From IMG/VR virus record IMGVR_UViG_3300021092_000047, positions 1-59,539 of that record: a stretch of 59,539 nucleotides of DNA. One strand, 5' to 3'. Made by a program: the position numbers and the translations under genes. The stretch is from a virus. Lineage: Duplodnaviria; Caudoviricetes. The notes below the pieces were generated by a model. The model was not told where the DNA came from, did not search any database, and saw only the letters and a list, made by a program, of their open reading frames with translations. Shown here in pieces: positions 3,145-59,083 of the stretch (position 1 is the first letter of the stretch; every line of letters starts with the position of its first letter).

Positions 3145-5394
3145 CTATCGCAAGTCAAGTCGTTTGATGGCGGCGTTAATCCTTTCTTGCGACGCGAAAT
3201 GAAATACTTCACGAAATTGTTGCGACGTAAACTCAAGCCAAGCTTTCCAATCTTTAGCTTTTGGTTTAGGTAGCTGAGTAAAATGCCTCAAATAATTGAG
3301 CACAATTTTGTCCGCACTGTGCGAAAACAATCGAGGCTCAAGCATAAGGTCAACCAAATCAATTAGAATCAATTCTCGTCGAACTGCATTTTTTGGTGTC
3401 TTGCCTGCGGTAACAAAAAAACCTGTAGCGTCGTACTTTTGGATGTTAGTCCAATTGTCTAAACGCCGTGGCCACTTGTGGATCCATTGGTTATAGCCTC
3501 CTCTACGAATGTCCATACGGTGGTATAGCATAGACAGCCCTGCATCAACTTGCTTACGCTCAATCCAGATACCTTGAGTTGTTAATCCAGCACAGCTAGC
3601 CGTAACTTGCAAGGCAACTGCGAGAGCTAAAGCCCAAGTAGCTTCCATTTCTGGATTGTCACGAGATAGCGACGTACAGACTTCATCCGTCAAACGACAT
3701 TGGCTTTGTTGCGGCCCAGGTACATCTTCGGCAAACGTAAAATCTGGAATTTGCCGAAATGTGCCTTGAACAAGTTTTGTATGTTGAAACTGAAAGCCCT
3801 CACCGTCCCAGCCGACTTCTTCTAATCCGCGAACAACCTCAGGTGCTTGAAAACGGCAAGCTGCATCAAACGGACAAAAGTTTTCACTTTTAAGATTGTT
3901 GTACTGATTCATAAAGATATCAGCTTGTAACAGTATTTGGTTTTCCAGTGCAAAATTGCGTAACCAGGTCCAGTTTGCTTTTTTAATTGGCACGCGAAAA
4001 TTTGCAGTTTTTTTACCGCTGGTTAAGGTGCCTACGTATTCTCGACTGTTTTTGCGAACAACAATGTAATTAATTCGAAGAACGCCTGCTAACCTTACAT
4101 GACCGCTGCGACTGTACCACTTGCCTTTGCGTTCAATTAAGACTGTGTTCCCGCCTACACCTTGCACGCCTCCGCGTGCCGTGACAGCTACAGTGATTCT
4201 GCGACCAAAGTTTGACTGCGCACTTGGTTGAACTGTTTTATGCACAAAGTCATACACTTGCGTTGAATACTGCTCTGCGTCTTGCAATAGATTAATTTTT
4301 TCTTTTGGAGTAGCAGTTCTTGCCCAGTTTTTCAATGCGCGTTCGTAGGGACTGGCGTTACGAATCAGCTTTGATATCCCGTCAGTTGCGGGTTGATGAT
4401 GTACCCAACTCCACCAGCGACTGCCTGATACCTCTTCTGGTTGTTGTCGCGTACTGTCTGGACCTAAAAACGTTAGCGAAGCATCTGTCATCATTGCCTG
4501 ATGCAAGATATTTGCCGTTGGTTTGCGTTCCCATAAGACAAGATTTCGACCACTAAAAACTGACCATTGTTTTTCACGATAACGCCATACACCAAAACGC
4601 GAACCCAAAAGCGGTAGCGGTATGCGGCTGTTATTGAAGTTGTGCATTTGCAACATGAGCATTGGACTTAACATCGATGTTACAACGATGTGTTGCGACT
4701 GACTTTGATCTAGCAACGGTAAACCGGCAAAGCCAACTTCTCCTGTAAGGTATGCTGAAGAATACCCAGTAGGGCAGGTTATAAAGACTTCACGATGCTG
4801 AGGGAAACAGGCAAATGCGCCAATGTCTGTAGGTGTACGAAAATACGGTACAACTGCCATCATGCTTTGAGTTTTGCCAAAGATATTGCGAAAGTGTTTG
4901 TTTGCTACGTCAGAAGAAAGCAAACCGTACAACTGTCCTGGTCCTTCTAGGAAACGCTCTAGTCCCATTGTCGAAGGCCGCTGCCAGCCTAGACTTTGCA
5001 GATACTGATGCTGTTCTCGCCGGATATACCTCATGTTTTCCTGAGCCTCAGCCCAGGCTAGCTTGAAGCGACGCCGGAAGTCTTGGTTTTTTTCAAACGC
5101 TTTACGGTCTGTTGAAGAGATGTTCAAATTAAGTTTTTCGGCCAGGTAGTCTAAAGCGGCTGACTCTGTCAAGCCTAGATGCTCAGCTGCCATTGCCAAA
5201 ACACTTCCAGAGACTTTACACTGAGAACAATAATGCCATTCTTCAAGATTTCTGTTATCTTGATAAATGGTCCAAGCGTTTGATCCGCAATATGGACATT
5301 TCGCATTAACTGTGTATTTTGCAGTTGGTTCCAGCCCTAGTAGCGGAGCAACTGTTTGAAATTGTAACCCTGCATGGATGTCTAGGAGACTCAC
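3145..5394 (-). CDS. large protein with N-terminal primase-type (CHC2-like) zinc finger
   Basis: CPYC...WHYCSQCKVSGSVL...AALDYLAEKLNL resembles a DnaG zinc-binding domain; remainder unrecognised; GTG start chosen to avoid overlap with the divergent gene. Confidence 0.5.
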   Translation of the reverse strand: MSLLDIHAGLQFQTVAPLLGLEPTAKYTVNAKCPYCGSNAWTIYQDNRNLEEWHYCSQCKVSGSVLAMAAEHLGLTESAALDYLAEKLNLNISSTDRKAFEKNQDFRRRFKLAWAEAQENMRYIRREQHQYLQSLGWQRPSTMGLERFLEGPGQLYGLLSSDVANKHFRNIFGKTQSMMAVVPYFRTPTDIGAFACFPQHREVFITCPTGYSSAYLTGEVGFAGLPLLDQSQSQHIVVTSMLSPMLMLQMHNFNNSRIPLPLLGSRFGVWRYREKQWSVFSGRNLVLWERKPTANILHQAMMTDASLTFLGPDSTRQQPEEVSGSRWWSWVHHQPATDGISKLIRNASPYERALKNWARTATPKEKINLLQDAEQYSTQVYDFVHKTVQPSAQSNFGRRITVAVTARGGVQGVGGNTVLIERKGKWYSRSGHVRLAGVLRINYIVVRKNSREYVGTLTSGKKTANFRVPIKKANWTWLRNFALENQILLQADIFMNQYNNLKSENFCPFDAACRFQAPEVVRGLEEVGWDGEGFQFQHTKLVQGTFRQIPDFTFAEDVPGPQQSQCRLTDEVCTSLSRDNPEMEATWALALAVALQVTASCAGLTTQGIWIERKQVDAGLSMLYHRMDIRRGGYNQWIHKWPRRLDNWTNIQKYDATGFFVTAGKTPKNAVRRELILIDLVDLMLEPRLFSHSADKIVLNYLRHFTQLPKPKAKDWKAWLEFTSQQFREVFHFASQERINAAIKRLDLR

Positions 5395-5395
5395 A

Positions 5396-6568
5396 ATGCC
5401 TTCACCTTCTGTTGTGCTCGATCCGGCTTCGGACAAAACCCGCACCGAGCTTACTAAACTTGCTAGTCGATACGACTTCCCGCAGTTTGTGCGAGCTGCC
5501 GATCTGGATAGTACTATGAATCCAGGTGAAATTGCTGTAACAGCTTACGCCGATCCGGTCAATAAAAAGTACGCATGTCATTCCGCAGCTGCCACCTGGC
5601 TTTCAGCCGCGTACTTCCATGAGAAGTCGGCCGAATACCATCCTAAACATCAGTCGCGCATTTGTGAACGGCTAGAACGCTTTGCAGACTATTTTGGTAT
5701 TCGTCCGGCTTACGAAGCAATAGTAAAACAAGCTAGTGCACTTCGAGATCAAGATCACTTGCCCGACAGCAGTTATGCTTATGTTTGGCAAGCAAACGAC
5801 GGTTACAAAGAGCGATACTATCCGCTAACATCTGCACTTGAAGTCAAGGTAGCAGCTGAGTGGTTACGAGACAACCGAGATCGCATTCCTTTTGCCGATC
5901 GCAACGTGATTAGCAATCGCATTCTTGAAAAGGCCGCACGTTACGGCGCAGGCCTTGGTGATGAGTTGACCGACTTTGTTGAAAAGCAAGCGGGACGCGG
6001 TATTCCTGACCCACCCGAGCTTTACACAATGCTCGAGCGACGAGCAATGCTTGCTAAAAAAGCCGATCATCGCGAAGCCATCACAAAGCTAGCAGAATCG
6101 GTACGCAACACGCCGCGAGTCGCTTTGCAGCCTAACGAGCTTATTAAGCTCGCAGCAACGGTAGACTTGGTAGATCACGCTTTGGGGTTGAAAGGCAAGT
6201 ACACTGAGATTTTGCCGCGACCTGAAGATGTGATTTTCAAAGTCACATTTACTAAGGCCGCATCAGATCACGGTAAGCTTTGCACACTTCAAACCGGCAG
6301 CATCTACGACAAATCGCAGTTAGCTAAGTTGGCGCGCGAAGATGTTGCAAGCGTATTTGGCGATGACTTTGCAAATGAAGTTTGCACCGGGTTTGACGTA
6401 GACCCGGAAAAGATTGCAGAGCTTGCACATACATTACCACGACCAGATGCTGAATTGCTTGAGCATCTACTTTCAGAGGCAGGTCAACGGCCGCAGCTGG
6501 CGAAATCCGCCAGCTACGAACCGCTTGACACTGAAACACTGGAAGCGCTGGCTAACGCTTACCGCTAA
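5396..6568 (+). CDS. hypothetical protein (possibly head-associated)
   Basis: AGGAG RBS before ATG 5396; 390-aa ORF with recurrent KQAS/KAAS/KSAS motifs. Confidence 0.6.
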   Translation: MPSPSVVLDPASDKTRTELTKLASRYDFPQFVRAADLDSTMNPGEIAVTAYADPVNKKYACHSAAATWLSAAYFHEKSAEYHPKHQSRICERLERFADYFGIRPAYEAIVKQASALRDQDHLPDSSYAYVWQANDGYKERYYPLTSALEVKVAAEWLRDNRDRIPFADRNVISNRILEKAARYGAGLGDELTDFVEKQAGRGIPDPPELYTMLERRAMLAKKADHREAITKLAESVRNTPRVALQPNELIKLAATVDLVDHALGLKGKYTEILPRPEDVIFKVTFTKAASDHGKLCTLQTGSIYDKSQLAKLAREDVASVFGDDFANEVCTGFDVDPEKIAELAHTLPRPDAELLEHLLSEAGQRPQLAKSASYEPLDTETLEALANAYR

Positions 6569-6816
6569 CGAACAGAAGGCGGATCAAACTCGTCGGTATC
6601 TTCGAGCTCGTCCTCATCCACCTCAAATGGTTCAAGCTCGATACCCAGTATTTTAGCAAGTTCTTCGCAATCATTTGCCATTGGCTCAAACGACTCTCGC
6701 CCTTCGTCGTTTGAGCAATCCCAAATCTGCAGCAATCCGTCTAGGCATGAGTCGCGCAATCGTGTTAGGATTTTTTTTATTTTTTCTTTTTCTTCCGCGG
6801 TTGCCATTGCTAACAC
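6565..6816 (-). CDS. small acidic hypothetical protein
   Basis: ORF with acidic tail, convergent with previous gene. Confidence 0.55.
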   Translation of the reverse strand: MLAMATAEEKEKIKKILTRLRDSCLDGLLQIWDCSNDEGRESFEPMANDCEELAKILGIELEPFEVDEDELEDTDEFDPPSVR

Positions 6817-6924
6817 CTTAATCGTAAAGTTTTGCTTGTTTCAAAAGCCCAACAATAGTTTCTTCTGGAACGTCTAGTCGGGACAAGTCACCCATCATCT
6901 AACCCTTTCTTGGTATATCTTGCA

Positions 6925-6960
6925 GAACCCGCACCCGAAGGTGGCTGCATTACACGCGTA
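6925..6960 (-). ncRNA. twister ribozyme, 5' half (split copy)
   Basis: UACGCGUG UAA UGCA GC CACC-UUCG-GGUG CGGG UUC, after which homology stops. Confidence 0.75.
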
Positions 6961-6990
6961 TGTTTAACGTCTTCACCAGGACGGTGCCGA

Positions 6991-7293
6991 TCAAATGATT
7001 TCCCATTTCTTATTTGAAAATGGGTGGGCAACGAGCGTGTGCTCGTTGCTTGATTTAGGGGTAGCGAGCAGAAAAATTCCATAGTTTTCCACGTTCCAGT
7101 TTGCTGCTTTAATAGCCGCGGTGACTGCTGCTCTTTTACGGAGTCCGGCGTCACTGAAATTTACGTTTCCGTAACCCGGCTCGTTACTTGGCAACACACT
7201 TTGACAAACAACTACAACTCCAAGCACACCACTAACTGTAGCATACAATGCGACAGCAGCAGAATGCAGGATTCGACAGATGAACAACATCAT
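6991..7293 (-). CDS. cassette cargo: membrane-anchored hypothetical protein (100 aa)
   Basis: Start after the repeat leader (AAGAAGAAAAGUC-AUG); N-terminal hydrophobic stretch. Confidence 0.65.
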   Translation of the reverse strand: MMLFICRILHSAAVALYATVSGVLGVVVVCQSVLPSNEPGYGNVNFSDAGLRKRAAVTAAIKAANWNVENYGIFLLATPKSSNEHTLVAHPFSNKKWEII

Positions 7294-7327
7294 GACTTTT
7301 CTTCTTGTGGCCGTAGTATAAATGAAA

Positions 7328-7364
7328 AGAGCCCGCCAAACCATTTACGAATCTGACGGGCTCT
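7328..7364 (-). promoter_or_regulatory. repeat leader hairpin (H) followed by U-tract
   Basis: AGAGCCCGUCAGA...UUUGGCGGGCUCU UUUC; G-U pairs favour the minus strand. Confidence 0.7.
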
Positions 7365-7404
7365 ACGCGTGTCCTCTGCATTTACCAGGGCTTGGAACCC
7401 GCAC
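7364..7404 (-). ncRNA. twister ribozyme, 3' half (split copy)
   Basis: GUG CGGG UUCC AAGC CCUG GUAAA UGCA GAGGA CACGCGUA. Confidence 0.75.
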
Positions 7405-7428
7405 TCGCGTCGCTCGTTAAACCTGACG

Positions 7429-7692
7429 CTAGCACATGATTTCGTAGACAGTTCTACCTTCTCTACCTTCGCTTTTTTTCTTTGTTTGCCCACCTAACGG
7501 CATATCGTGAAAACAACCGCCGTTGACTGTTTTGTTGCTTACGGCCTTTGTGATTTTGTCTGCAGATTTTTTAGACTGCACCTGAATACGGTCATAACAA
7601 ATACCGCTGTGAAACCAGACAATGTCTTTGGCTGGAATGTCAAAGCGTTTGGCAAGCCACGTTCTGGTTTCGTCGTCAATTGTCGCATTCAT
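7429..7692 (-). CDS. hypothetical protein
   Basis: GAGG RBS before MNATIDD; overlaps upstream gene end. Confidence 0.55.
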   Translation of the reverse strand: MNATIDDETRTWLAKRFDIPAKDIVWFHSGICYDRIQVQSKKSADKITKAVSNKTVNGGCFHDMPLGGQTKKKSEGREGRTVYEIMC

Positions 7693-8257
7693 ATGATACC
7701 TCGTAGATTCTTGGATCTGGACCTTCCCATTGGCGCAATAACGTTTTGAGAGTGGCGATCGCTGCGTGCAGCATGTTGTTTTGCAAAACTTGAGCGTGTC
7801 CTGCGAGAAAGTTACCAGCGTTTTCTTTGCTCCATCCAGGTTTCCACTCGTCAAGTGCCATCAGCACATCAATGCTGATGTTGGGCATGACCAACAAGTC
7901 CGGGTGGTACAATAAAACATCATTCAACGTCACATGCACAAGAGCTTGTTCGTTTAACGAATAGTTATCTGTGCAGATTTCTATTAACGGAAATGCGTCT
8001 TCTTGAGTTTTACGCACCAACACTGAAACGTCCTCAGTCTCGATGAGTTCATCGTGCGGATGCCCGTGCATTCTTAGAAAACAACTTCCGCAAGTCCCGT
8101 CACTAAGCAAATGACGTTCTGCGGGCGTCAGCTCTGGAAAAGCGTCTTGCACAAACATTTCTCGCCTAATCCACTTTTTGTAACTGTCGTGATCCAGGTT
8201 GAACGTTGTTTTGTTGAGGCAATGTTGGCAGACTACAGACTTGTCGATTCTTTCCAT
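7676..8257 (-). CDS. hypothetical protein with Cys-rich N-terminal domain
   Basis: CQHC...QDAFPELTPAERHLLSDGTCGSC, a recurrent phage Zn-binding-like motif; GAGG RBS. Confidence 0.6.
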   Translation of the reverse strand: MERIDKSVVCQHCLNKTTFNLDHDSYKKWIRREMFVQDAFPELTPAERHLLSDGTCGSCFLRMHGHPHDELIETEDVSVLVRKTQEDAFPLIEICTDNYSLNEQALVHVTLNDVLLYHPDLLVMPNISIDVLMALDEWKPGWSKENAGNFLAGHAQVLQNNMLHAAIATLKTLLRQWEGPDPRIYEVSYECDN

Positions 8258-8918
8258 AATTTTTCCTCGGTAAAGGTTTATCTCGAAAACAAAGCTGACA
8301 ATGGCTGCAGGTCATTTTGGTGATGCCGTTCTCAGCAGGACAAACTAGTGCAGAACCTACCCACTTCAAAATAGTCGCATCTTTATCTCGAAAGATAAGA
8401 TCAACTTCGTAGGCAGGTATGTCGGTATCGTCTGTCATCAGGAATGCTCTGCGAACATTATCAACTTCAGGCGGCGGACCAGATTCGCGATCACAACTAA
8501 ACCAAAGCATTACGTTTGGCAGTTGTGCGTATTCGCGAAGCCGCTCTAGTACAGCCGAATCTGTCCAGCTGCGGGTGTAAGCATAAAACAACAAGCGCTG
8601 ATTTCGTTTTGCAATCTCAATCCATTTTTCGGTGTATTCGACGGAGTAAAAATCTCCACTAACATGCACTCGCAAGATGCGAACGTACAGGGCATATAAC
8701 CAACTGTTCACTCGCTGAACAAAGTCGGGTTTTAGCGACTCTGCATAATTAGATGCCAGCGAATTTTTAACATTTGTTTGATTGAAGTGTCCATGGGTAG
8801 CGTAACACAGCTTCAAACAAAGAGTAGTTGCGCCGATGCAAATTGAACGAACCGCAGAAGGGATAGACCAATGGTGAATTAGTGATCCGAGCTTTGTATT
8901 TCCTGGCCTGATTGGCAT
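8166..8918 (-). CDS. GP88-like (radical SAM-related) phage protein
   Basis: GNTKLG...WSIP...CIGAT..C..LCYA, RVHVSGDF, YAYTRSW, C-terminal CPA...TCSHCQLC; AAGGA RBS before MPIRPG. Confidence 0.75.
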   Translation of the reverse strand: MPIRPGNTKLGSLIHHWSIPSAVRSICIGATTLCLKLCYATHGHFNQTNVKNSLASNYAESLKPDFVQRVNSWLYALYVRILRVHVSGDFYSVEYTEKWIEIAKRNQRLLFYAYTRSWTDSAVLERLREYAQLPNVMLWFSCDRESGPPPEVDNVRRAFLMTDDTDIPAYEVDLIFRDKDATILKWVGSALVCPAENGITKMTCSHCQLCFRDKPLPRKNYGKNRQVCSLPTLPQQNNVQPGSRQLQKVD

Positions 8919-8997
8919 GGGATTCCTTTCAAAAAGAAACGCCAGGGGATGCCTGGCGTTTTGGTGCCTAAAACATGTCGTGCAAGCTTGGCACAAG

Positions 8998-9228
8998 TTA
9001 ATCGTCGTCTTCAATGAAACCTTTCTGCTGAGCGATCCACCCGGTCATGATGATGTAGCCCTTGTCGCCGTCGGCGAGGCAGTCGGTCTCCCTGATCTGG
9101 CTCTTGGGCAGCCACATCTCGACGGGCTTGCCCTCGTCGTCGGTCAGCGAGATCAGGAACGCCTTCTCGGTCACACGCTTGACCAGCACGTCTTCGAGCG
9201 TGAAGGTGTTTTCTTCTTTTTTAGCCAC
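8998..9228 (-). CDS. small phage protein
   Basis: GGAGG RBS, GTG start, TEKAFL...WLPKSQI motif, GC-rich codons. Confidence 0.6.
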   Translation of the reverse strand: MAKKEENTFTLEDVLVKRVTEKAFLISLTDDEGKPVEMWLPKSQIRETDCLADGDKGYIIMTGWIAQQKGFIEDDD

Positions 9229-9562
9229 GGGTCGCTTCCTCCGTTTCGTCCTTGGAGATCCAGACCCAGGCACGTACCCAGGTTCCATCGTCAGTGACTG
9301 AAAGATCTGCTGACGTCAGCCGGTCGATTTCAATTTCAGTACTTCCGTATTTGTCTTGTGCTCGTTGTCGCAACACATCCAGTTCTTGTTGTAAATGTGA
9401 AGAGGCTTCAAGCAGGTGACACAAACAGCCACAAACTGCGCATTCTACGTCGGTATAAGGTTCGCCTAATTCCAAGCGTTCATGCAGGTCTTTGGCTTTT
9501 GGCAGTTCGTTATACGGCTTAATCGAAGGGCAGTTACTGCATTGCATCATTTGTAGTTGCAT
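9221..9562 (-). CDS. hypothetical Zn-ribbon protein
   Basis: CSNC...ECAVCGCLC; AAGGA RBS. Confidence 0.55.
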   Translation of the reverse strand: MQLQMMQCSNCPSIKPYNELPKAKDLHERLELGEPYTDVECAVCGCLCHLLEASSHLQQELDVLRQRAQDKYGSTEIEIDRLTSADLSVTDDGTWVRAWVWISKDETEEATRG

Positions 9563-9773
9563 AACGTATCCTTGTAGCTGTCGCGGGCCGCCTGGATGTC
9601 GTCCCAGGGCGGCCACGGCGGGTTATGGTTCCATTCGCGGGCGAGTCGACGAGCTTCCCCCCGGGAGCCAACGTCAGTGCGACGTTGGCTTCCCAGGGGT
9701 CGGCGTAGCGGTCGACCACGTAGTGCCAGCGGTGACCGTCGCGGTCACCGTCGCTTTCGTGGTAAAAACGCAT
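9534..9773 (-). CDS. hypothetical protein
   Basis: GC-rich ORF packed between neighbours. Confidence 0.4.
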   Translation of the reverse strand: MRFYHESDGDRDGHRWHYVVDRYADPWEANVALTLAPGGKLVDSPANGTITRRGRPGTTSRRPATATRIRYATTNDAMQ

Positions 9774-9777
9774 CGAA

Positions 9778-10047
9778 TTACGTTCGGAAATAAACGTCCT
9801 CCGGTGCAGGTTTCTCTGTAACAAAATACCCCATTCGATTTACGAAGTGGTATCCGCTACTGATGACCAAGCGGCCATCGCAATCTAACAACGTCCAGAC
9901 TGAATTATCAGAAACTTTAGTTTTGACAAAATCGAGTTCTGGTCCGTAGGTTTCAAACATGCAACCATCAAAACTGGCGTTGAACGCCAGATGGTTTTTA
10001 ATCGGCTTGTACTTTTCCCAAAAAGTATTCGCCATGATTCTAGGCAT
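9778..10047 (-). CDS. hypothetical phage protein
   Basis: GGAGG RBS; FETYGPELDFV...WT...SGYHFVNRMGY pattern seen in small phage proteins. Confidence 0.65.
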   Translation of the reverse strand: MPRIMANTFWEKYKPIKNHLAFNASFDGCMFETYGPELDFVKTKVSDNSVWTLLDCDGRLVISSGYHFVNRMGYFVTEKPAPEDVYFRT

Positions 10048-10285
10048 TGTTGTCCTCCTTTAACCAAACAGGCGATTTGTCCTTTTCAGGTGTCATGATG
10101 CAACTGTCGCCGTAACAAATTCCCGGCAGGAAATAAGGACAAGGTTTGCCCTCAATTGCCTGGGCAGGCGGACCCATCATGGACACGTTTCGGTGTCCCG
10201 AAGGTGCCTGCGCCGTAAAGCGCAGGCACGCATCGCGATTAGGACAGCTTTCACCAGTGCATCGTGTGATGTCGGCTAATGGCAC
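10040..10285 (-). CDS. small Cys-rich phage protein
   Basis: ADITRCTGESCPNRDACLRF; AGGAG RBS with GTG start. Confidence 0.6.
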   Translation of the reverse strand: MPLADITRCTGESCPNRDACLRFTAQAPSGHRNVSMMGPPAQAIEGKPCPYFLPGICYGDSCIMTPEKDKSPVWLKEDNNA

Positions 10286-10294
10286 GAAATGCTC

Positions 10295-10861
10295 CTAGAG
10301 TTCGTCAACTTTTTTAATAACACGCTTTGCAGCCACAACCTTGGTTGGGCTGCTGCGCTCCAAGTTTGACACGACGACAGTATTGCCTGCCCGTGCGGCT
10401 TTAGGCGTAACTGCGCGGAACTTTTCTTTCGCGTCTTCCTCGCACTTATTGTACAAGGCCACAAGCGTTGAATCGCTGGTCTCGAGAACTTTATCCGCTC
10501 CAAGCTGAATAATCGCTCCCAAAGCGCCGTTGACGTTCATCATGGTCTCTAACCATGCTGTGCCCGGCTTTACGCCATCCTTCTTCGCTGCTTTGGGGTT
10601 CGATTTGCTTTCAGCGTCATACTCCTTGTTAAGCGTTGAGGCATAGCTCAACAACAAAGGCTTGAGGAACTTGTCCATGTAAAAGTTTGGACTTTGAGTA
10701 GTATCGACGCCCCGACTCAGCGAACCGTCTAGGTGAATCACGACATCAAAATCATGATTGCCTGGGGTCACTTTTTCGCCGCCGTCCGTGCAGCGTTTCA
10801 GCTCTTTCTCAGCAGTCTTCAGCAGTGCAGTAGCTTCAATAACATTCAATGGCTTACTCAT
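10295..10861 (-). CDS. hypothetical protein
   Basis: Long ORF within a coupled operon. Confidence 0.65.
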   Translation of the reverse strand: MSKPLNVIEATALLKTAEKELKRCTDGGEKVTPGNHDFDVVIHLDGSLSRGVDTTQSPNFYMDKFLKPLLLSYASTLNKEYDAESKSNPKAAKKDGVKPGTAWLETMMNVNGALGAIIQLGADKVLETSDSTLVALYNKCEEDAKEKFRAVTPKAARAGNTVVVSNLERSSPTKVVAAKRVIKKVDEL

Positions 10862-11177
10862 TGGGCACATTTCCTTCAATTCTGGAATTTACAAGCTCAA
10901 TCTCGGCGGCAATCGCATCGGCGCGCCGCCAAAACGGCCCCAACGTGGGGCCGTTAAAAATACGAGCCTGCCAGCGACAAGGCCAGCGGCGAGTGAACCC
11001 TGCTAATGCAGAGTCGTCAGACACGCGTCGCCTGATCCAGTGGAACCAGCAACGCAACAACGGATTAACCGGCTCGACATGACTGACTCGATGCCGGTTA
11101 CTCAACCCAAGGAGCTGAGTAACCGGACTTTCGAGACCAATCATGTTGCCGTCGGTGTCAATGAACACTTTTGGCAT
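10854..11177 (-). CDS. hypothetical protein
   Basis: TAATG coupling to upstream gene; RVSHVEP motif. Confidence 0.6.
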   Translation of the reverse strand: MPKVFIDTDGNMIGLESPVTQLLGLSNRHRVSHVEPVNPLLRCWFHWIRRRVSDDSALAGFTRRWPCRWQARIFNGPTLGPFWRRADAIAAEIELVNSRIEGNVPNE

Positions 11178-12442
11178 TACTCAGAGGCTCCACCAACCTT
11201 GATCTTGCGACGAGGGCCTTTTCCTTGCTCTCGGATTTCCATCTCCGTGCTGGTCAACTTGTCCAAAAAGCTTTGGAACGAAGCTTTGGCTTGCTGTCTC
11301 GCAAAGCCGCTGTTGCGCAGCTGCTTTGTGATTTCAGCAGCAGAGCCGCCCATGTTGCCAAGCGTAGATGATACTTCTTCAGCCAGCTTAGTCAGACTGT
11401 CTGAGCCAGTAGCCGAACCTAGCATGCTTTTCACGGACTGAATCTTGTTTGCCAACCAGATGAGGTTGTCAAACGAAGACTGAGTTAGCACTCTGGACTC
11501 GTCGGTTTCGTAAGGCTTGAGTGCGTTGTATTCTTCCTGAGTCAGCAGAATGTCTTCTGCCTTGCCAGTCTGAATGAACTTGCTCGCATCGCTGTCTTTT
11601 GGCTGTGCTCGCTGCACAGTTATCAACAACTTATCCGCAGGAATCGAATCCGGATCATCAGCATGACGCAGGATTTGCTGAACCTCAGCATGCCGAAGAT
11701 CTTGCTGAGGATGACCTAGTGATGGCAACAAGCGAACACGTTTTCCACAATTTTGTGCAACGCTTTTCACCATCTCTTGGAATTCCCACACAAGCTCTCC
11801 AACGGCACCGTCAACAGACGCAGCCAAGCGAGCTTCGGCCTGCTCTCGCAGCATCTTTGCTGTCGCCGGAGCCACGTCTGCCAGTGTGAAACTGGCGTTG
11901 AATGGCTCGATACGCGGCAAGTCACAGCTAACAGCATCGGCCATTTGGAAAGATGTAGGATACTTGGGTTCCACAACTTTCCAGTCAGAACCAAGCGCGG
12001 CTTGGTCAGCATCTTTGATTCGCTGATAGTTTGAAAACTCAGCAACTTGTTTGCCCCAGTTGAGATAGTGTTCACGCACGTCATTAAAACGCGCAATGAA
12101 CTCTTCAACCTTGCAAGCCTCGATCAAGTAGCTACCTGCTACCTTTTCTGACTTGAAGTTGCTTTCTTCTGATTTGTTAGCGGTCGCTACCAGAGTGTAT
12201 TCTGGAATAGTGTACTGGTTGCGAATCGTTGTCAGCAACCGTTTGAGAGCAGCGCCCTGCTGGATGAGCGGATCTCGACTTGCGCCAAGAATGGCGTACG
12301 AGCCGCGAATCACTCGTTTATCAATGTTAAGTTGATTCGCAAGTGCGCTTTTTGCTGCATCCGTGAAACCGATTGCGCCCGGGAGCCAACCGATTTGAAA
12401 CTTAACGGTGCAGTAAGTGATTTGTTTTGTGTCTTCACTCAT
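11177..12442 (-). CDS. coiled-coil protein, DUF3150-like position in AAA module
   Basis: 421 aa, helical, AAGGA RBS; family assignment from context only. Confidence 0.5.
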   Translation of the reverse strand: MSEDTKQITYCTVKFQIGWLPGAIGFTDAAKSALANQLNIDKRVIRGSYAILGASRDPLIQQGAALKRLLTTIRNQYTIPEYTLVATANKSEESNFKSEKVAGSYLIEACKVEEFIARFNDVREHYLNWGKQVAEFSNYQRIKDADQAALGSDWKVVEPKYPTSFQMADAVSCDLPRIEPFNASFTLADVAPATAKMLREQAEARLAASVDGAVGELVWEFQEMVKSVAQNCGKRVRLLPSLGHPQQDLRHAEVQQILRHADDPDSIPADKLLITVQRAQPKDSDASKFIQTGKAEDILLTQEEYNALKPYETDESRVLTQSSFDNLIWLANKIQSVKSMLGSATGSDSLTKLAEEVSSTLGNMGGSAAEITKQLRNSGFARQQAKASFQSFLDKLTSTEMEIREQGKGPRRKIKVGGASE

Positions 12443-19237: not shown

Positions 19238-19279
19238 GCCGAAGTTTCATCGGCACCCCATTGCGCAGAGTGGGTTTCT
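19238..19279 (-). repeat. repeat module C (two hairpins 5' of ribozyme)
   Basis: AGAAA CCCA..UGGG GU GCCGA-UGAAACU-UCGGC; second copy at 20472-20512. Confidence 0.7.
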
Positions 19280-56233: not shown

Positions 56234-59083
56234 TTAAAGTGTGTAGTTGCCGTCACATACTCGTTTTTTCCAGTCTTTGAATTTAGGTTCTTCATATTCT
56301 TCACGATGACCGGATCTGCTCTTGGCTCTGTCTGGGCCGAACAACAAGAAACCATCGTATTGAAGCATCGTAGGATTATCGACCCAGTGTAACTTGCCAG
56401 GCCAAGGATAAAGTTTCTGACCCTGATACTGCACAGGCTTTTCTGTCCAGGCATGCGGCATCGCTTCGGCTAAACCTGTACGCTCTAGCTGCTGCCAACG
56501 AGACTCGAGTAGCGCAAACCCTGTCGAACCGTAAGTGTAAGCGTAGCCGCGACTAGACTCGTCGCGATAAGAAAAACCTAACTCGTTTTCAAGTAACTGA
56601 GTATTTCCTGGCTCTTTATCTTTCCAGTAAAAGTCAGGATAAAACGATGGAAACAAACCGGTGCCAATTTGCGTAATCTTATCTGAAAACGAAGCAAAAG
56701 CCGAAATAAAGGCATTAACCCCTTCTGGGATTTTAGCTGTCTGGCTGTCACCAATAGTTGGAAAGCCGCCGCGACAAGCCATAGAGCTTAGAGCAAAAAT
56801 CGCGCCTTTGGCATAAACACCTCTATCTACACCTAAGTTGCCGCCTTTAACAATACAAACATCTTTATCCATTACGGTGGGTCCGTGAATTTTAGAAAAA
56901 TCTGGACCTAAGTAATTGGATTCCGTCATCGTAATTTCGTCTTGTCCGCGAGGAGAATGCCAAAGGCCTAGTCCTTCTGTGTTAAAAAATGTGTGCCCCA
57001 ACGCATAGGACACCATACGCGAACGTCCGTTGGCACAGTCAATGACTAGGTCTCCTGTACCTTCTGCAAATTGGGGCGATGACCCTACTGGGCTTGGAGA
57101 GCCGTCTGGGCCTGGAGGGCCGTCTGGGTCTGGAGACTCCACGCCAGTCCGAATATACGCCGTTTTACTTAACAAATTAACAGAGCCACCACGGCTGAAC
57201 AGTACGATACCTGAGCCCTGTATTTCTTCACCAATTTTCTTCTTGTAATCCTGCTTAGTGCCCTTACCTTTAGACTCAATCAAGACAGTGCCTTTACCGC
57301 TGTTACCGCCGAGTACTTGCACGTTGCGTTCAGCTTTAATGCGAACATCTGCTTCGCTTGACGAAACATCAACAGATCCTTTTGCTCGAACAATTGCTTC
57401 GTGCGCCAATGTGACTACCCGGGAACCTGACATAAGCATCACGTCACCACCAGCTTCAAGCCGTATTTGTCCGCCTGCCATGGTTATTTGAGAACCGTAA
57501 CCGTCGGCAATTGTGATACTGCCGTCTTCATTCAATGTAAAAAATGAAGCAGTGTTGTAGTAATTAACATCTTGGTATCTGTCGTCAATTTTCAACTTTT
57601 GAGGTGTAACAGAGACGTAGGCTTGGCTCATATTTCCGCGGTAAAACTTGACCTCATTTAGCGGACTATCATTATCGCCTTCTTCAGGATAAGCATAGTC
57701 TTTGGTGTGGTAATAAAACGGGTGTGTACTTTTCCAGTTAAAATGCCGCGTCAGCAAGTCAATAACGCCCGCAGGACGAAGCATGTTCGGAGTTAGACTT
57801 ACAGCGGCATCGTTCCATTCAAGCACCTTGTGCTTTCGTCCAGAACCGTACAAACCACTGAAGCGGTAATCGTTCTGGACAGATAGATCGTCGCCCTTTG
57901 CATCTTCGGCTAGACGCTTACGTGTTGGGCTAGGTATTACAGGATACTTAGCAAATAAAATTTGCTTGGCGGAACGAATTCCGTAACTGCCGTCTAAAGT
58001 CAAAAATTCATTGAACAGGCCAATGTCTTTTTCTTTATCTGTGTTGGTTCGTAACCTTGGTCCATCCTCTTTCGCAGGCTTAACTAACGTACGATTAAAG
58101 CCCTGACCTAAGTACCCGGTATAATCGGATAATCGATAGACGGGAGAAATATCTTGATTTTCAAGGTCTTCTTTGGCAAACGGAAATTCTCTGTCAAGCT
58201 GTACTTTTTTTGCTTCATTTTCTTTTGTGAATTTTTCGCCAAAGCCGTACATCCCTACAGCTTCCCAAGGATAAGTCGCGTATCCTCGGAAAGAAAGAAG
58301 TTCACCTTCGTCGTACTGCTGCGTTACATGTTCGCAGTAAGATTGAATTTGAAGCGATAGACCAGCCAGCTTGGCATAACTATCAAAGTAGTTTAACCAT
58401 AAACCGCAAGCCTCGTTTGCTCGAAGATAAGCCTGAAACGAATCAATCAACAGACCGATGCCGGTCTCTGACATTCGCACATATTCACCTAATGCTCCAT
58501 CCATCGGTCGACCGCAAGACTGAGAAACCCAACCGTGAGCTGCGGCCGTTGCTTTTGGAATATTGCGGTAAGCTTCTACCTTTTTAGGTCCTGAGTTACC
58601 GCCTTGCTGTATCATGTCCGACGCGTTAAACAAGTCTGTCACAGTCGGATGCGGAAGTACTGCAATGATGTAAGCTAGCCCAGCATTTGCAGGTTTCCAA
58701 ACTAAAACAGATGAGTTTGGAGGAATAGCATCGCCTGCTTTAACCCCTAAGGGACTATGAGAATTACGCGCTGCCGCGGTAGCAATGCAAGAGCCCTGAC
58801 GACCTGTCAGTTGAATCTTGTAACAATGAATGTATGGCATCGCTAAAACAACACGACCAACACGTAACGGAGTATCCTCCGAAATGTTGGCTTGTTGCAT
58901 TGCTGCGCTGAGATGCGTATCGCTTACCTGACCCCCAGTCATTAACTGGGTCCAAGAATCCTGCGATTCATGTGCTACCATAAGGTCATGAATCTGACCT
59001 TGATCGCTTGGTAGAACGCCAAGACTGCGTTCATTATAGACCGCAGGTTTACTGTTGGCATTTGCGCCATGATTTATGCTCAT
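56234..59083 (-). CDS. gp5/VgrG-like baseplate spike protein
   Basis: N-terminal OB-fold-like GRVV...VLV, beta-helix-like ITIADGYGSQITMAGGQIRLEAGGD. Confidence 0.55.
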   Translation of the reverse strand: MSINHGANANSKPAVYNERSLGVLPSDQGQIHDLMVAHESQDSWTQLMTGGQVSDTHLSAAMQQANISEDTPLRVGRVVLAMPYIHCYKIQLTGRQGSCIATAAARNSHSPLGVKAGDAIPPNSSVLVWKPANAGLAYIIAVLPHPTVTDLFNASDMIQQGGNSGPKKVEAYRNIPKATAAAHGWVSQSCGRPMDGALGEYVRMSETGIGLLIDSFQAYLRANEACGLWLNYFDSYAKLAGLSLQIQSYCEHVTQQYDEGELLSFRGYATYPWEAVGMYGFGEKFTKENEAKKVQLDREFPFAKEDLENQDISPVYRLSDYTGYLGQGFNRTLVKPAKEDGPRLRTNTDKEKDIGLFNEFLTLDGSYGIRSAKQILFAKYPVIPSPTRKRLAEDAKGDDLSVQNDYRFSGLYGSGRKHKVLEWNDAAVSLTPNMLRPAGVIDLLTRHFNWKSTHPFYYHTKDYAYPEEGDNDSPLNEVKFYRGNMSQAYVSVTPQKLKIDDRYQDVNYYNTASFFTLNEDGSITIADGYGSQITMAGGQIRLEAGGDVMLMSGSRVVTLAHEAIVRAKGSVDVSSSEADVRIKAERNVQVLGGNSGKGTVLIESKGKGTKQDYKKKIGEEIQGSGIVLFSRGGSVNLLSKTAYIRTGVESPDPDGPPGPDGSPSPVGSSPQFAEGTGDLVIDCANGRSRMVSYALGHTFFNTEGLGLWHSPRGQDEITMTESNYLGPDFSKIHGPTVMDKDVCIVKGGNLGVDRGVYAKGAIFALSSMACRGGFPTIGDSQTAKIPEGVNAFISAFASFSDKITQIGTGLFPSFYPDFYWKDKEPGNTQLLENELGFSYRDESSRGYAYTYGSTGFALLESRWQQLERTGLAEAMPHAWTEKPVQYQGQKLYPWPGKLHWVDNPTMLQYDGFLLFGPDRAKSRSGHREEYEEPKFKDWKKRVCDGNYTL

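Follow-up and report, generated by a model that had tools for sequence, protein, structure and literature searches.

A circularly permuted twister-ribozyme cassette outside its array in a lake phage, possibly derived from a unit-length intermediate

In the PeSL cassettes of T4-type phages, recombination between repeats shuffles ORFans in hyperplastic regions and yields one-gene mini-circles (Arbiol et al., 2010; PMC2839356). Twister and hammerhead ribozymes occur between small phage-type genes and are thought to process polycistronic transcripts, and a review leaves the reason for this association undetermined (PMC6765202). Natural permuted twisters exist, cleavage takes place at a U-A step, and stem P1 is dispensable for cleavage (PMC5408937). 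The present analysis concerns a linear IMG/VR virus record of 59,539 bp (IMGVR_UViG_3300021092_000047; completeness estimate 27%), analyzed over its whole length and referred to here as the window. Positions 7404-6925 on its minus strand hold one whole cassette unit that is circularly permuted and measures one unit plus 10 nucleotides (nt). This ectopic cassette lies 11.8 kb from a resident array of small genes and twister ribozymes (22782-19180, minus strand). The best reading, held tentatively and with somewhat less than even confidence, is that a unit-length, probably circular, intermediate was joined into this place by illegitimate recombination.

Among the proteins encoded in the window are gpA-type terminase, GP88-like, baseplate-J, and collagen-repeat proteins (28 open reading frames [ORFs] scanned against Pfam), and nearly all genes from 3 to 59 kb are carried on the minus strand. 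The resident array contains four matches to the twister type P1 model (RF03160), with scores of 57.7-62.3 bits (E 1e-11 to 2e-10) that narrowly miss the gathering score of 67.2; the same four twisters score 82-91 bits against model R1, which was built from themselves. Their P1 stems have 3, 3, 6, and 3 pairs. Each array twister is succeeded by a conserved terminator-like hairpin with a T run (hairpin H) and then by a leader, whose ribosome-binding site (RBS) is of the GGAG type, and a small gene. A further element, module B (a short hairpin and TTAAACA), stands after some of the array genes and runs into the next twister. Hairpin H and the leader are present in seven copies in the window, including the ectopic one. 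In the ectopic cassette the parts occur as listed below, in order of transcription and together with the adjoining sequence; L012 is a syntenic metagenome contig.

7431-7429, minus strand: stop codon of the 87-amino-acid (aa) gene, just upstream of the filler
7405..7428, minus strand: filler of 24 nt, following the stop codon of the conserved 87-aa gene and preceding the cassette, with no counterpart in L012
7395..7404, minus strand: first copy of GTGCGGGTTC, covering the final 3 nt of the 3' strand of P3, the 5' strand of P4, and 4 nt of L4
7364..7404, minus strand: twister 3' part, with the whole P4 hairpin and L4, the P2 3' strand (7380-7377), and the P1 3' strand (7371-7364)
7329..7363, minus strand: hairpin H, terminator-like, with conserved loop, followed by a T run
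7294..7328, minus strand: leader, with weakened RBS (GAAG versus GGAG of the array copies)
6991..7293, minus strand: 100-aa ORFan with hydrophobic N-terminus (ORF reading)
6961..6993, minus strand: module B, with stop codon, short hairpin, and TTAAACA
6925..6960, minus strand: twister 5' part, with the P1 5' strand (6960-6953), the U-A step (6952/6951), the P2 5' strand (6949-6946), and the whole of P3
6934-6925, minus strand: second copy of GTGCGGGTTC, at the end of the twister 5' part
6878..6924, minus strand: right flank, comprising the non-coding 3'-end remnant of a 138-aa gene and the start of a 26-aa ORF

The first-pass annotation of this DNA had described a permuted one-gene unit with a split twister and with the same 10-mer at both ends, and both descriptions are confirmed by the minus-strand reading and motif scans. 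The 10-mer GTGCGGGTTC, at 7404-7395 and 6934-6925, has exactly two copies in the 59,539 bp when both strands are considered (chance expectation 0.11), and its register in the twister was taken from alignments to the Rfam model and to the array copies. Hairpin H of the cassette was found by a terminator scan and consists of 15 pairs plus TTTTCATT. The twister 3' part scores 23.9 bits against RF03160 and 32.2 bits (E about 1e-6) against R1, and matches the 25-nt array core at 24 of 25 positions. In the 5' part (12.8 bits against R1), 18 nt, TACGCGTGTAATGCAGCC, are identical to two array copies; this part alone has no Rfam match, and neither part reaches the threshold of any Rfam twister model (23.9 versus 67.2 bits for the 3' part). 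An alignment of the parts, joined by their coordinates, is in register with each of the four array twisters. The joined sequence departs from these only in its P3 loop and at two positions of the 35-nt 3' core, one of them producing a G-U pair in P4. Stems P1, P2, and P4 and the conserved L1 and L4 nucleotides are all present only when both parts are combined. Between the two parts, P1 consists of eight contiguous pairs and is the longest in the window. The earlier statement that the joined ends rebuild a twister with an 8-bp P1 therefore stands.

Both ends of the cassette fall at one and the same position in the twister repeat, the P3/P4 junction, with a terminal redundancy of 10 nt, which is the signature of a unit-length intermediate. 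The overlap is identical throughout, including 3 nt of the variable P3 stem, which fits both ends having been copied from one twister. If two independent breakpoints had only to spare the gene, the leader, and the 3' hairpin, no more than a few percent of such pairs would be expected to agree in ribozyme position to about 10 nt (our own estimate, not computed), whereas a unit-length intermediate would explain the coincidence directly. A linear piece of a donor array may also have been transferred with no circle involved, by two template switches or breaks at the foot of the P3 hairpin of successive twisters. Both breakpoints do lie directly 3' of the P3 hairpin, and the combination of filler and short microhomology is typical of copy-choice or illegitimate joining. 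Moreover, the array includes other partial twisters (the stub at 20585-20576 and the core-replaced copy at 22157-22083), suggesting that twister DNA breaks or recombines repeatedly here. However, these other partial twisters break after GTGTAA and after GCAGCC, such that no single hot spot is evident, and the identical 3 nt of the variable P3 would require that the neighboring P3 stems be alike, as is the case in one pair among the four array copies. A linear transfer of this kind is regarded as unlikely.

The intermediate may alternatively have been RNA. A twister-cut cassette RNA could have been circularized by an RNA ligase or by the reverse reaction, reverse-transcribed slightly more than once round, and inserted as complementary DNA (cDNA) in a retrozyme-like manner. 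Retrozymes in eukaryotes move by way of circular RNA, reverse transcription, and cDNA insertion (PMC7761336). Copying a circle once round would give both the unit length and the short terminal redundancy, and the cassette ends form a perfect 8-bp P1, as if they had met in a circle. Yet no reverse transcriptase or RtcB-like family was detected in the 28 ORFs scanned, in a record estimated to cover about 27% of the genome, and we know of no precedent in tailed phages for gene movement through an RNA circle; this route is highly improbable.

The slot in which the cassette lies can be compared with that of L012, a JGI metagenome contig of which 8,252 of 26,726 nt were compared. The contig is syntenic across window positions 11797-4410, with three long blocks that are 88.7-95.4% identical and one 239-nt block at 69%. 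Four of the aligned stretches are as follows.

L012 2-1713, window 11797-10086: 95.4% identity
L012 2478-4254, window 9214-7430: 88.9% identity
L012 5501-5540, window 6917-6878: 95% identity (blastn)
L012 5789-8251, window 6878-4410: 88.7% identity

On the left, homology extends to the stop codon of the 87-aa gene and no further. By blastn it begins again at 6917 and, given a 4-nt indel, plausibly extends on this right side to TTCTGC (6927-6922), which overlaps the cassette by 3 nt. Between these limits, L012 carries a 277-aa and a 138-aa gene on 1,246 nt and contains no cassette, twister, or hairpin H, whereas the window has 512 nt, made up of the cassette with its filler and a few further bases. 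Of the 138-aa gene, the window keeps about 27 nt from the 3' end as non-coding DNA before the next start codon. This remnant suggests that L012-type genes were the earlier occupants of the slot and were later replaced. As judged by alignment with L012, the cassette appears to have reached its slot by insertion or replacement in a hyperplastic region. The first-pass interpretation is upheld in part: relative to L012 the cassette is an insertion, and it is present in independent sequencing runs (see below). The specific mechanism given there is unsupported.

In that mechanism, the target would already have contained a 10-bp microhomology, and one crossover there would have brought in a one-gene circle, leaving the site otherwise intact. 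An exact 10-bp direct repeat with a chance expectation of 0.11 per window does bound the unit. However, the L012 site consists of 1,246 nt of other genes, the 8,252 nt of L012 lack GTGCGGGTTC at up to one mismatch, and the 24 nt left of the cassette are missing from L012. The microhomology on the right amounts to at most 3-6 nt, and a single crossover cannot account for the replacement of resident genes. The predicted empty site is also absent, both from L012 and from the contigs of four runs. A single crossover at this repeat is therefore very unlikely to have produced the locus.

A different history would be the decay of a larger insert or of a second small array, from which two independent deletions removed the outer twister halves. 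Other deletions have taken place nearby (the next gene lost 248 nt, and the 138-aa gene lost its body), the cassette appears old or foreign, with the most diverged hairpin H and leader and a weakened RBS, and a weak pseudo-5' part in the upstream flank was aligned by both covariance models. On the other hand, this pseudo-5' part has no UAA cleavage loop and lies partly inside the conserved 87-aa gene that is common to L012. When the 45-nt flanks were locally aligned to the missing twister parts and compared with a background of about 4,977 genome-wide windows, the missing halves were not found in the flanks (background fractions scoring at least equally of 0.90, 0.05, 0.67, and 0.72). There is no ribozyme at the L012 site, and a relative with full ribozymes on both sides, which the first-pass annotation had named as the observation that would overturn its account, was not seen in the one relative available. 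Both deletions would furthermore need ends within 10 nt of the same ribozyme position. Decay of this type is considered distinctly unlikely. The 24-nt filler matches nothing else in the window, nor anything in L012, the phage G001, or contig L013, with up to five errors allowed; a likeness of the filler to module B, seen by eye, was dropped since it is not significant against the genome-wide background, and nor is its likeness to module B and the twister 5' part combined.

Repeats such as the twister cause chimeric joins, and an assembly or amplification artefact has to be considered for this reason. Among sequencing runs of lake water or sediment, 24 contain part of the 6300-8100 sequence, and 18 of the 24 contain at least half of the sampled words. 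Contigs (Logan) of four of these runs (X10, X15, X16, and X17), none of them flagged as a possible source of the window, were examined. The junction at 7404/7405 is bridged by contigs of X10 (7370-8100) and X17 (7355-8041), and that at 6924/6925 by contigs of X15 (6845-7259) and X16 (6845-7153). The misassembly check proposed in the first-pass annotation is thus answered by independent contigs that span both junctions, from two runs each. The contigs of the four runs contain no variant letters, indels, or joints, an array-derived record aside. Since the 10-nt junction overlap is below assembler word sizes, it could not have caused a word-based misjoin. There is no sign of misassembly at either junction, gaps in the coverage of X15-X17 carrying no meaning; the artefact explanation is exceedingly improbable. 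Loose contig ends at 6983, 7358, and 7399 correspond to array copies. One record seemed to join 7404 to 6940 through five extra letters and was considered as a circle junction; it differs at two other letters, has twice the phage depth, and represents the identical pair of array twisters. No 470-bp circle junction, for which the first-pass annotation had suggested a search, is present in the contigs of the four runs.

Regarding its origin, the cassette is related to the resident array yet differs from all of its members. Its hairpin H and leader are 69-75% identical to the five full array copies and 51% identical to a sixth, short copy, whereas the five full copies are 77-93% identical among themselves. 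Module B of the cassette is 74-76% identical to three array copies. The cassette twister deviates in the P3 loop and at two core positions that are uniform in all four array copies. The content of guanine and cytosine is 48% in the cassette, 45-48% in the backbone, and 56% in the array. Because it is the most diverged member of the set, the cassette is not a fresh copy of the resident array, and a donor other than this array is inferred. The 100-aa ORFan is weakly similar to one array gene (21040-20744; pairwise E 2e-4). An exhaustive HMMER search of 1.84 billion representatives yielded one true homolog, P0004 (86 aa), which is encoded on a 589-nt ENA contig and has 54% identity over the matched stretch and 50% in the alignment; two long repetitive matches were regarded as spurious. 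The ORFan has no Pfam family and no usable ESM Atlas match, and a word-based protein search returned only itself. GenBank phages gave no match for the DNA of 5000-12000, for the 667-aa protein, or, in distant mode, for the cassette. In IMG/VR, nothing was found for the 193-aa flank protein or for the cassette protein, either alone or aligned with P0004, and the cassette twister 3' core and hairpin H are absent by exact pattern.

From the observed anatomy, the contigs of independent runs, and the difference from L012, the following course of events may be envisaged, in which the circle, the direction of the event, the foreign donor, and the activity of the ribozyme are all conjectural. The simplest unit-length intermediate would be a DNA circle of one cassette, arising in a donor array when the twister repeats that flank the cassette recombined; the PeSL mini-circles are the best-documented precedent. 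The circle would then have been opened at, or copied once round from, the P3/P4 junction, and the resulting piece joined by illegitimate recombination into the slot between two conserved genes. This would have left the 24-nt filler on one side and about 3-6 nt of microhomology on the other, with the loss of about 1.25 kb. The split ribozyme would be a by-product in which all core positions are kept in two parts. Its RNA may assemble across the gene of about 400 nt and cut at 6952/6951, separating the cassette messenger RNA (mRNA) from the downstream genes. Intact array twisters presumably bring about the same separation.

Several observations weigh against the entry of a unit-length intermediate. 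The evidence comes from one case whose sequence does not vary between runs, and the only syntenic relative found has its slot filled with other genes. No circle junction, cassette-skipping joint, or empty site was found in the contigs of four of the 24 runs, noting that contigs drop rare forms. No donor array was found in IMG/VR or among GenBank phages, and no source was found for the filler. Furthermore, no integrase, recombinase, reverse transcriptase, or RNA ligase is encoded by the 28 ORFs scanned against Pfam, in a record estimated at 27% of the genome. The RBS of the cassette is weakened (GAAG versus GGAG in aligned copies), and the cassette gene may therefore be decaying. Lastly, P2 has a pair probability of 0.18 in the pseudoknot-free fold of a 541-nt transcript.

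That fold is thermodynamic, covers the transcript 7440-6900, and has pseudoknots outside its model. In it, P1 has a mean pair probability of 0.93, which is also the value obtained when the interior is shuffled (eight trials). This high probability makes assembly across the gene plausible, and cleavage by the split ribozyme across the gene is likewise plausible in terms of the model. The predicted cut at 6952/6951 is a U-A step that aligns to the cleavage dinucleotide of the family. The first-pass annotation had suggested that the halves could form a permuted P3-type twister. Pairing between the halves is indeed possible, as the P1 value indicates, but the assignment to a type is not borne out: a cmscan of 6850-7480 at E up to 10 gave no match to a permuted P3- or P5-type twister, and the opening of the cassette twister follows an intact P3 hairpin instead of lying within P3 or P5. 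No RNA run was among those found to contain 6300-8100 sequence.

The surroundings of the cassette are themselves variable. The 26-aa ORF of the window (6898-6818, minus strand) is derived, by an in-frame deletion of 248 nt, from a 109-aa gene of L012 (L012 5520-5849). The adjacent 288 bp (6874-6587) are shared at 87% with G001, an otherwise unrelated phage of 57.5 kb. These plastic neighbors place the cassette in a hyperplastic, mosaic region. The module shared with G001 comprises the tail of the 109-aa gene and an 83-aa gene, and an alignment search with the 83-aa protein recovered only G001. In the G001 copy (L007 13096-12760, minus strand, equivalent to G001 57018-57352), a 20-bp direct repeat lies at either end of the module and is confined to these two places. 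This repeat contains GGTGCAGG, an 8-mer that is also the P3/P4 junction of two array twisters, a post hoc match that may be due to chance. In three runs, a 96-nt contig (6779-6874) has 2-5 times the phage depth and a different continuation beyond 6874; its excess depth is explained by a co-occurring G001-type phage that shares the module. At the 3' end of the 87-aa gene (about 7470-7445, minus strand), a 9-nt tandem duplication contains GAAGGTAGA twice and is lacking in L012.

Within the resident array, further irregular elements were observed on the minus strand. The twisters at 19863-19805 and 19238-19180 differ solely in the last base, even the variable P3 being the same, which suggests a recent duplication or gene conversion inside the array. 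At 22159-22081, a canonical module B and twister 5' part are followed by a divergent twister-like 3' region. This sequence scores weakly (Twister-P5, 23 bits; RF03160, 16.8; R1, 16.6 with 46 nt replacing the core) and represents a second subtype of ribozyme or else one more recombined twister. The twister stub at 20585-20576 stops after GTGTAA and is followed by about 100 non-coding nt, which end in ...GGGTGCCGATGAAACTTCGG before the next intact twister. The same end motif, GGGTGCCGATGAAACTTCGG, is also found ahead of the twister at 19238, and CGTGTA(A), a short word, occurs again on both sides (elements 20590-20473 and 19330-19239). A further conserved RNA element is one possibility here, an insertion into a twister another. 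Between two array copies of hairpin H, a GC-rich stretch devoid of ORFs (21374-21108) has a predicted fold of -125.5 kcal/mol, compared with -96.3 +/- 5.3 for shuffled sequences (z = -5.46; none of 200 shuffles did as well). No Rfam family matches the stretch, which is a candidate for a structured RNA that fills a cassette slot. Promoter-like sites in the array number six, versus 2.6 +/- 1.7 expected, and two of them overlap start codons. None of the sites in the array is placed to drive a cassette, and the ectopic unit has none on the cassette strand.

The apparently exact move of one unit provides a testable idea, namely that the ribozyme-containing repeat may serve as a linker for modular gene shuffling, comparable to the PeSLs in T4-type phages, beside its role in mRNA processing. 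Should the split form cleave, it would be the first twister in nature to have its parts on either side of a coding region, adding to the known permutations and suggesting how long-range, P1-tethered ribozymes might be designed. If neither idea holds true, the locus would be a one-off scar of illegitimate recombination in a hyperplastic region, and still a dated marker of cassette movement. At its broadest, the proposal would be that twister-delimited cassettes are a true mobile gene-cassette system of phages. In such a system, the ribozyme repeat would act both as processing site and as linker of one-gene circles (of DNA, or of RNA copied back), the circles would carry ORFans between phages, and the ectopic unit would be a still-cleaving, natural discontinuous twister around a whole gene, left by a circle that landed outside an array. 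This wider proposal is doubtful at present.

When compared with known ribozymes, the joined twister shares with type P1 (RF03160) the same core, stems P1, P2, P3, and P4, loop L4, and the U-A step. It differs from types P3 and P5 in being opened at the P3/P4 junction rather than inside P3 or P5. In natural twister permutations P1 is closed by a short loop, whereas here the closing loop would be about 400 nt long, with a whole gene in it. A discontinuous hammerhead in the 3' untranslated regions (UTRs) of mammalian Clec2 genes, reportedly described by Martick et al. in 2008, is said to have parts hundreds of nt apart that assemble in cis. It belongs to another ribozyme class and its parts lie within one UTR, whereas the parts here bracket a coding region. 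A contig from a Bacteroidaceae metagenome-assembled genome (L013 5200-4640, minus strand) contains a twister, a small gene, a second twister-like sequence, and a further small gene, and ribozyme-separated small genes are thus not peculiar to this lake phage.

Among cassette systems, integrons resemble the present one in having promoterless one-gene units that are bounded by structured repeats, move as circles, and form arrays. They differ in that no integrase and no attC or attI site was found here and in that the insertion was not site-specific; specifically, no tyrosine-recombinase integrase was found in the 28 ORFs compared with Pfam, array neighbors included, in this incomplete genome. By the features examined, the cassette is not a member of the integrons or of the retrozymes, and as encoded it belongs to no Rfam twister type. 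A relocated, permuted ribozyme cassette is not described in the full-text literature searched, a coverage that excludes subscription papers and the supplements of the PeSL and twister-discovery papers. The closest likeness is to the PeSL cassettes, in which small ORFans in hyperplastic regions are flanked by a repeated regulatory module that has a stem-loop resembling a terminator. Close relatives in that system differ in having ORFans inserted, deleted, or replaced, as the window and L012 do in the slot described here. The PeSL circles are proposed as transfer vehicles, whereas circles are here only postulated, and the core of the repeat is here a self-cleaving ribozyme type in place of the PeSL promoter. 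Unlike a PeSL cassette, the present unit was not placed into a resident repeat by homologous recombination; its twister repeat would be split because the copy landed in non-homologous DNA. By analogy, then, the unit resembles a PeSL-type cassette that missed its homologous target.

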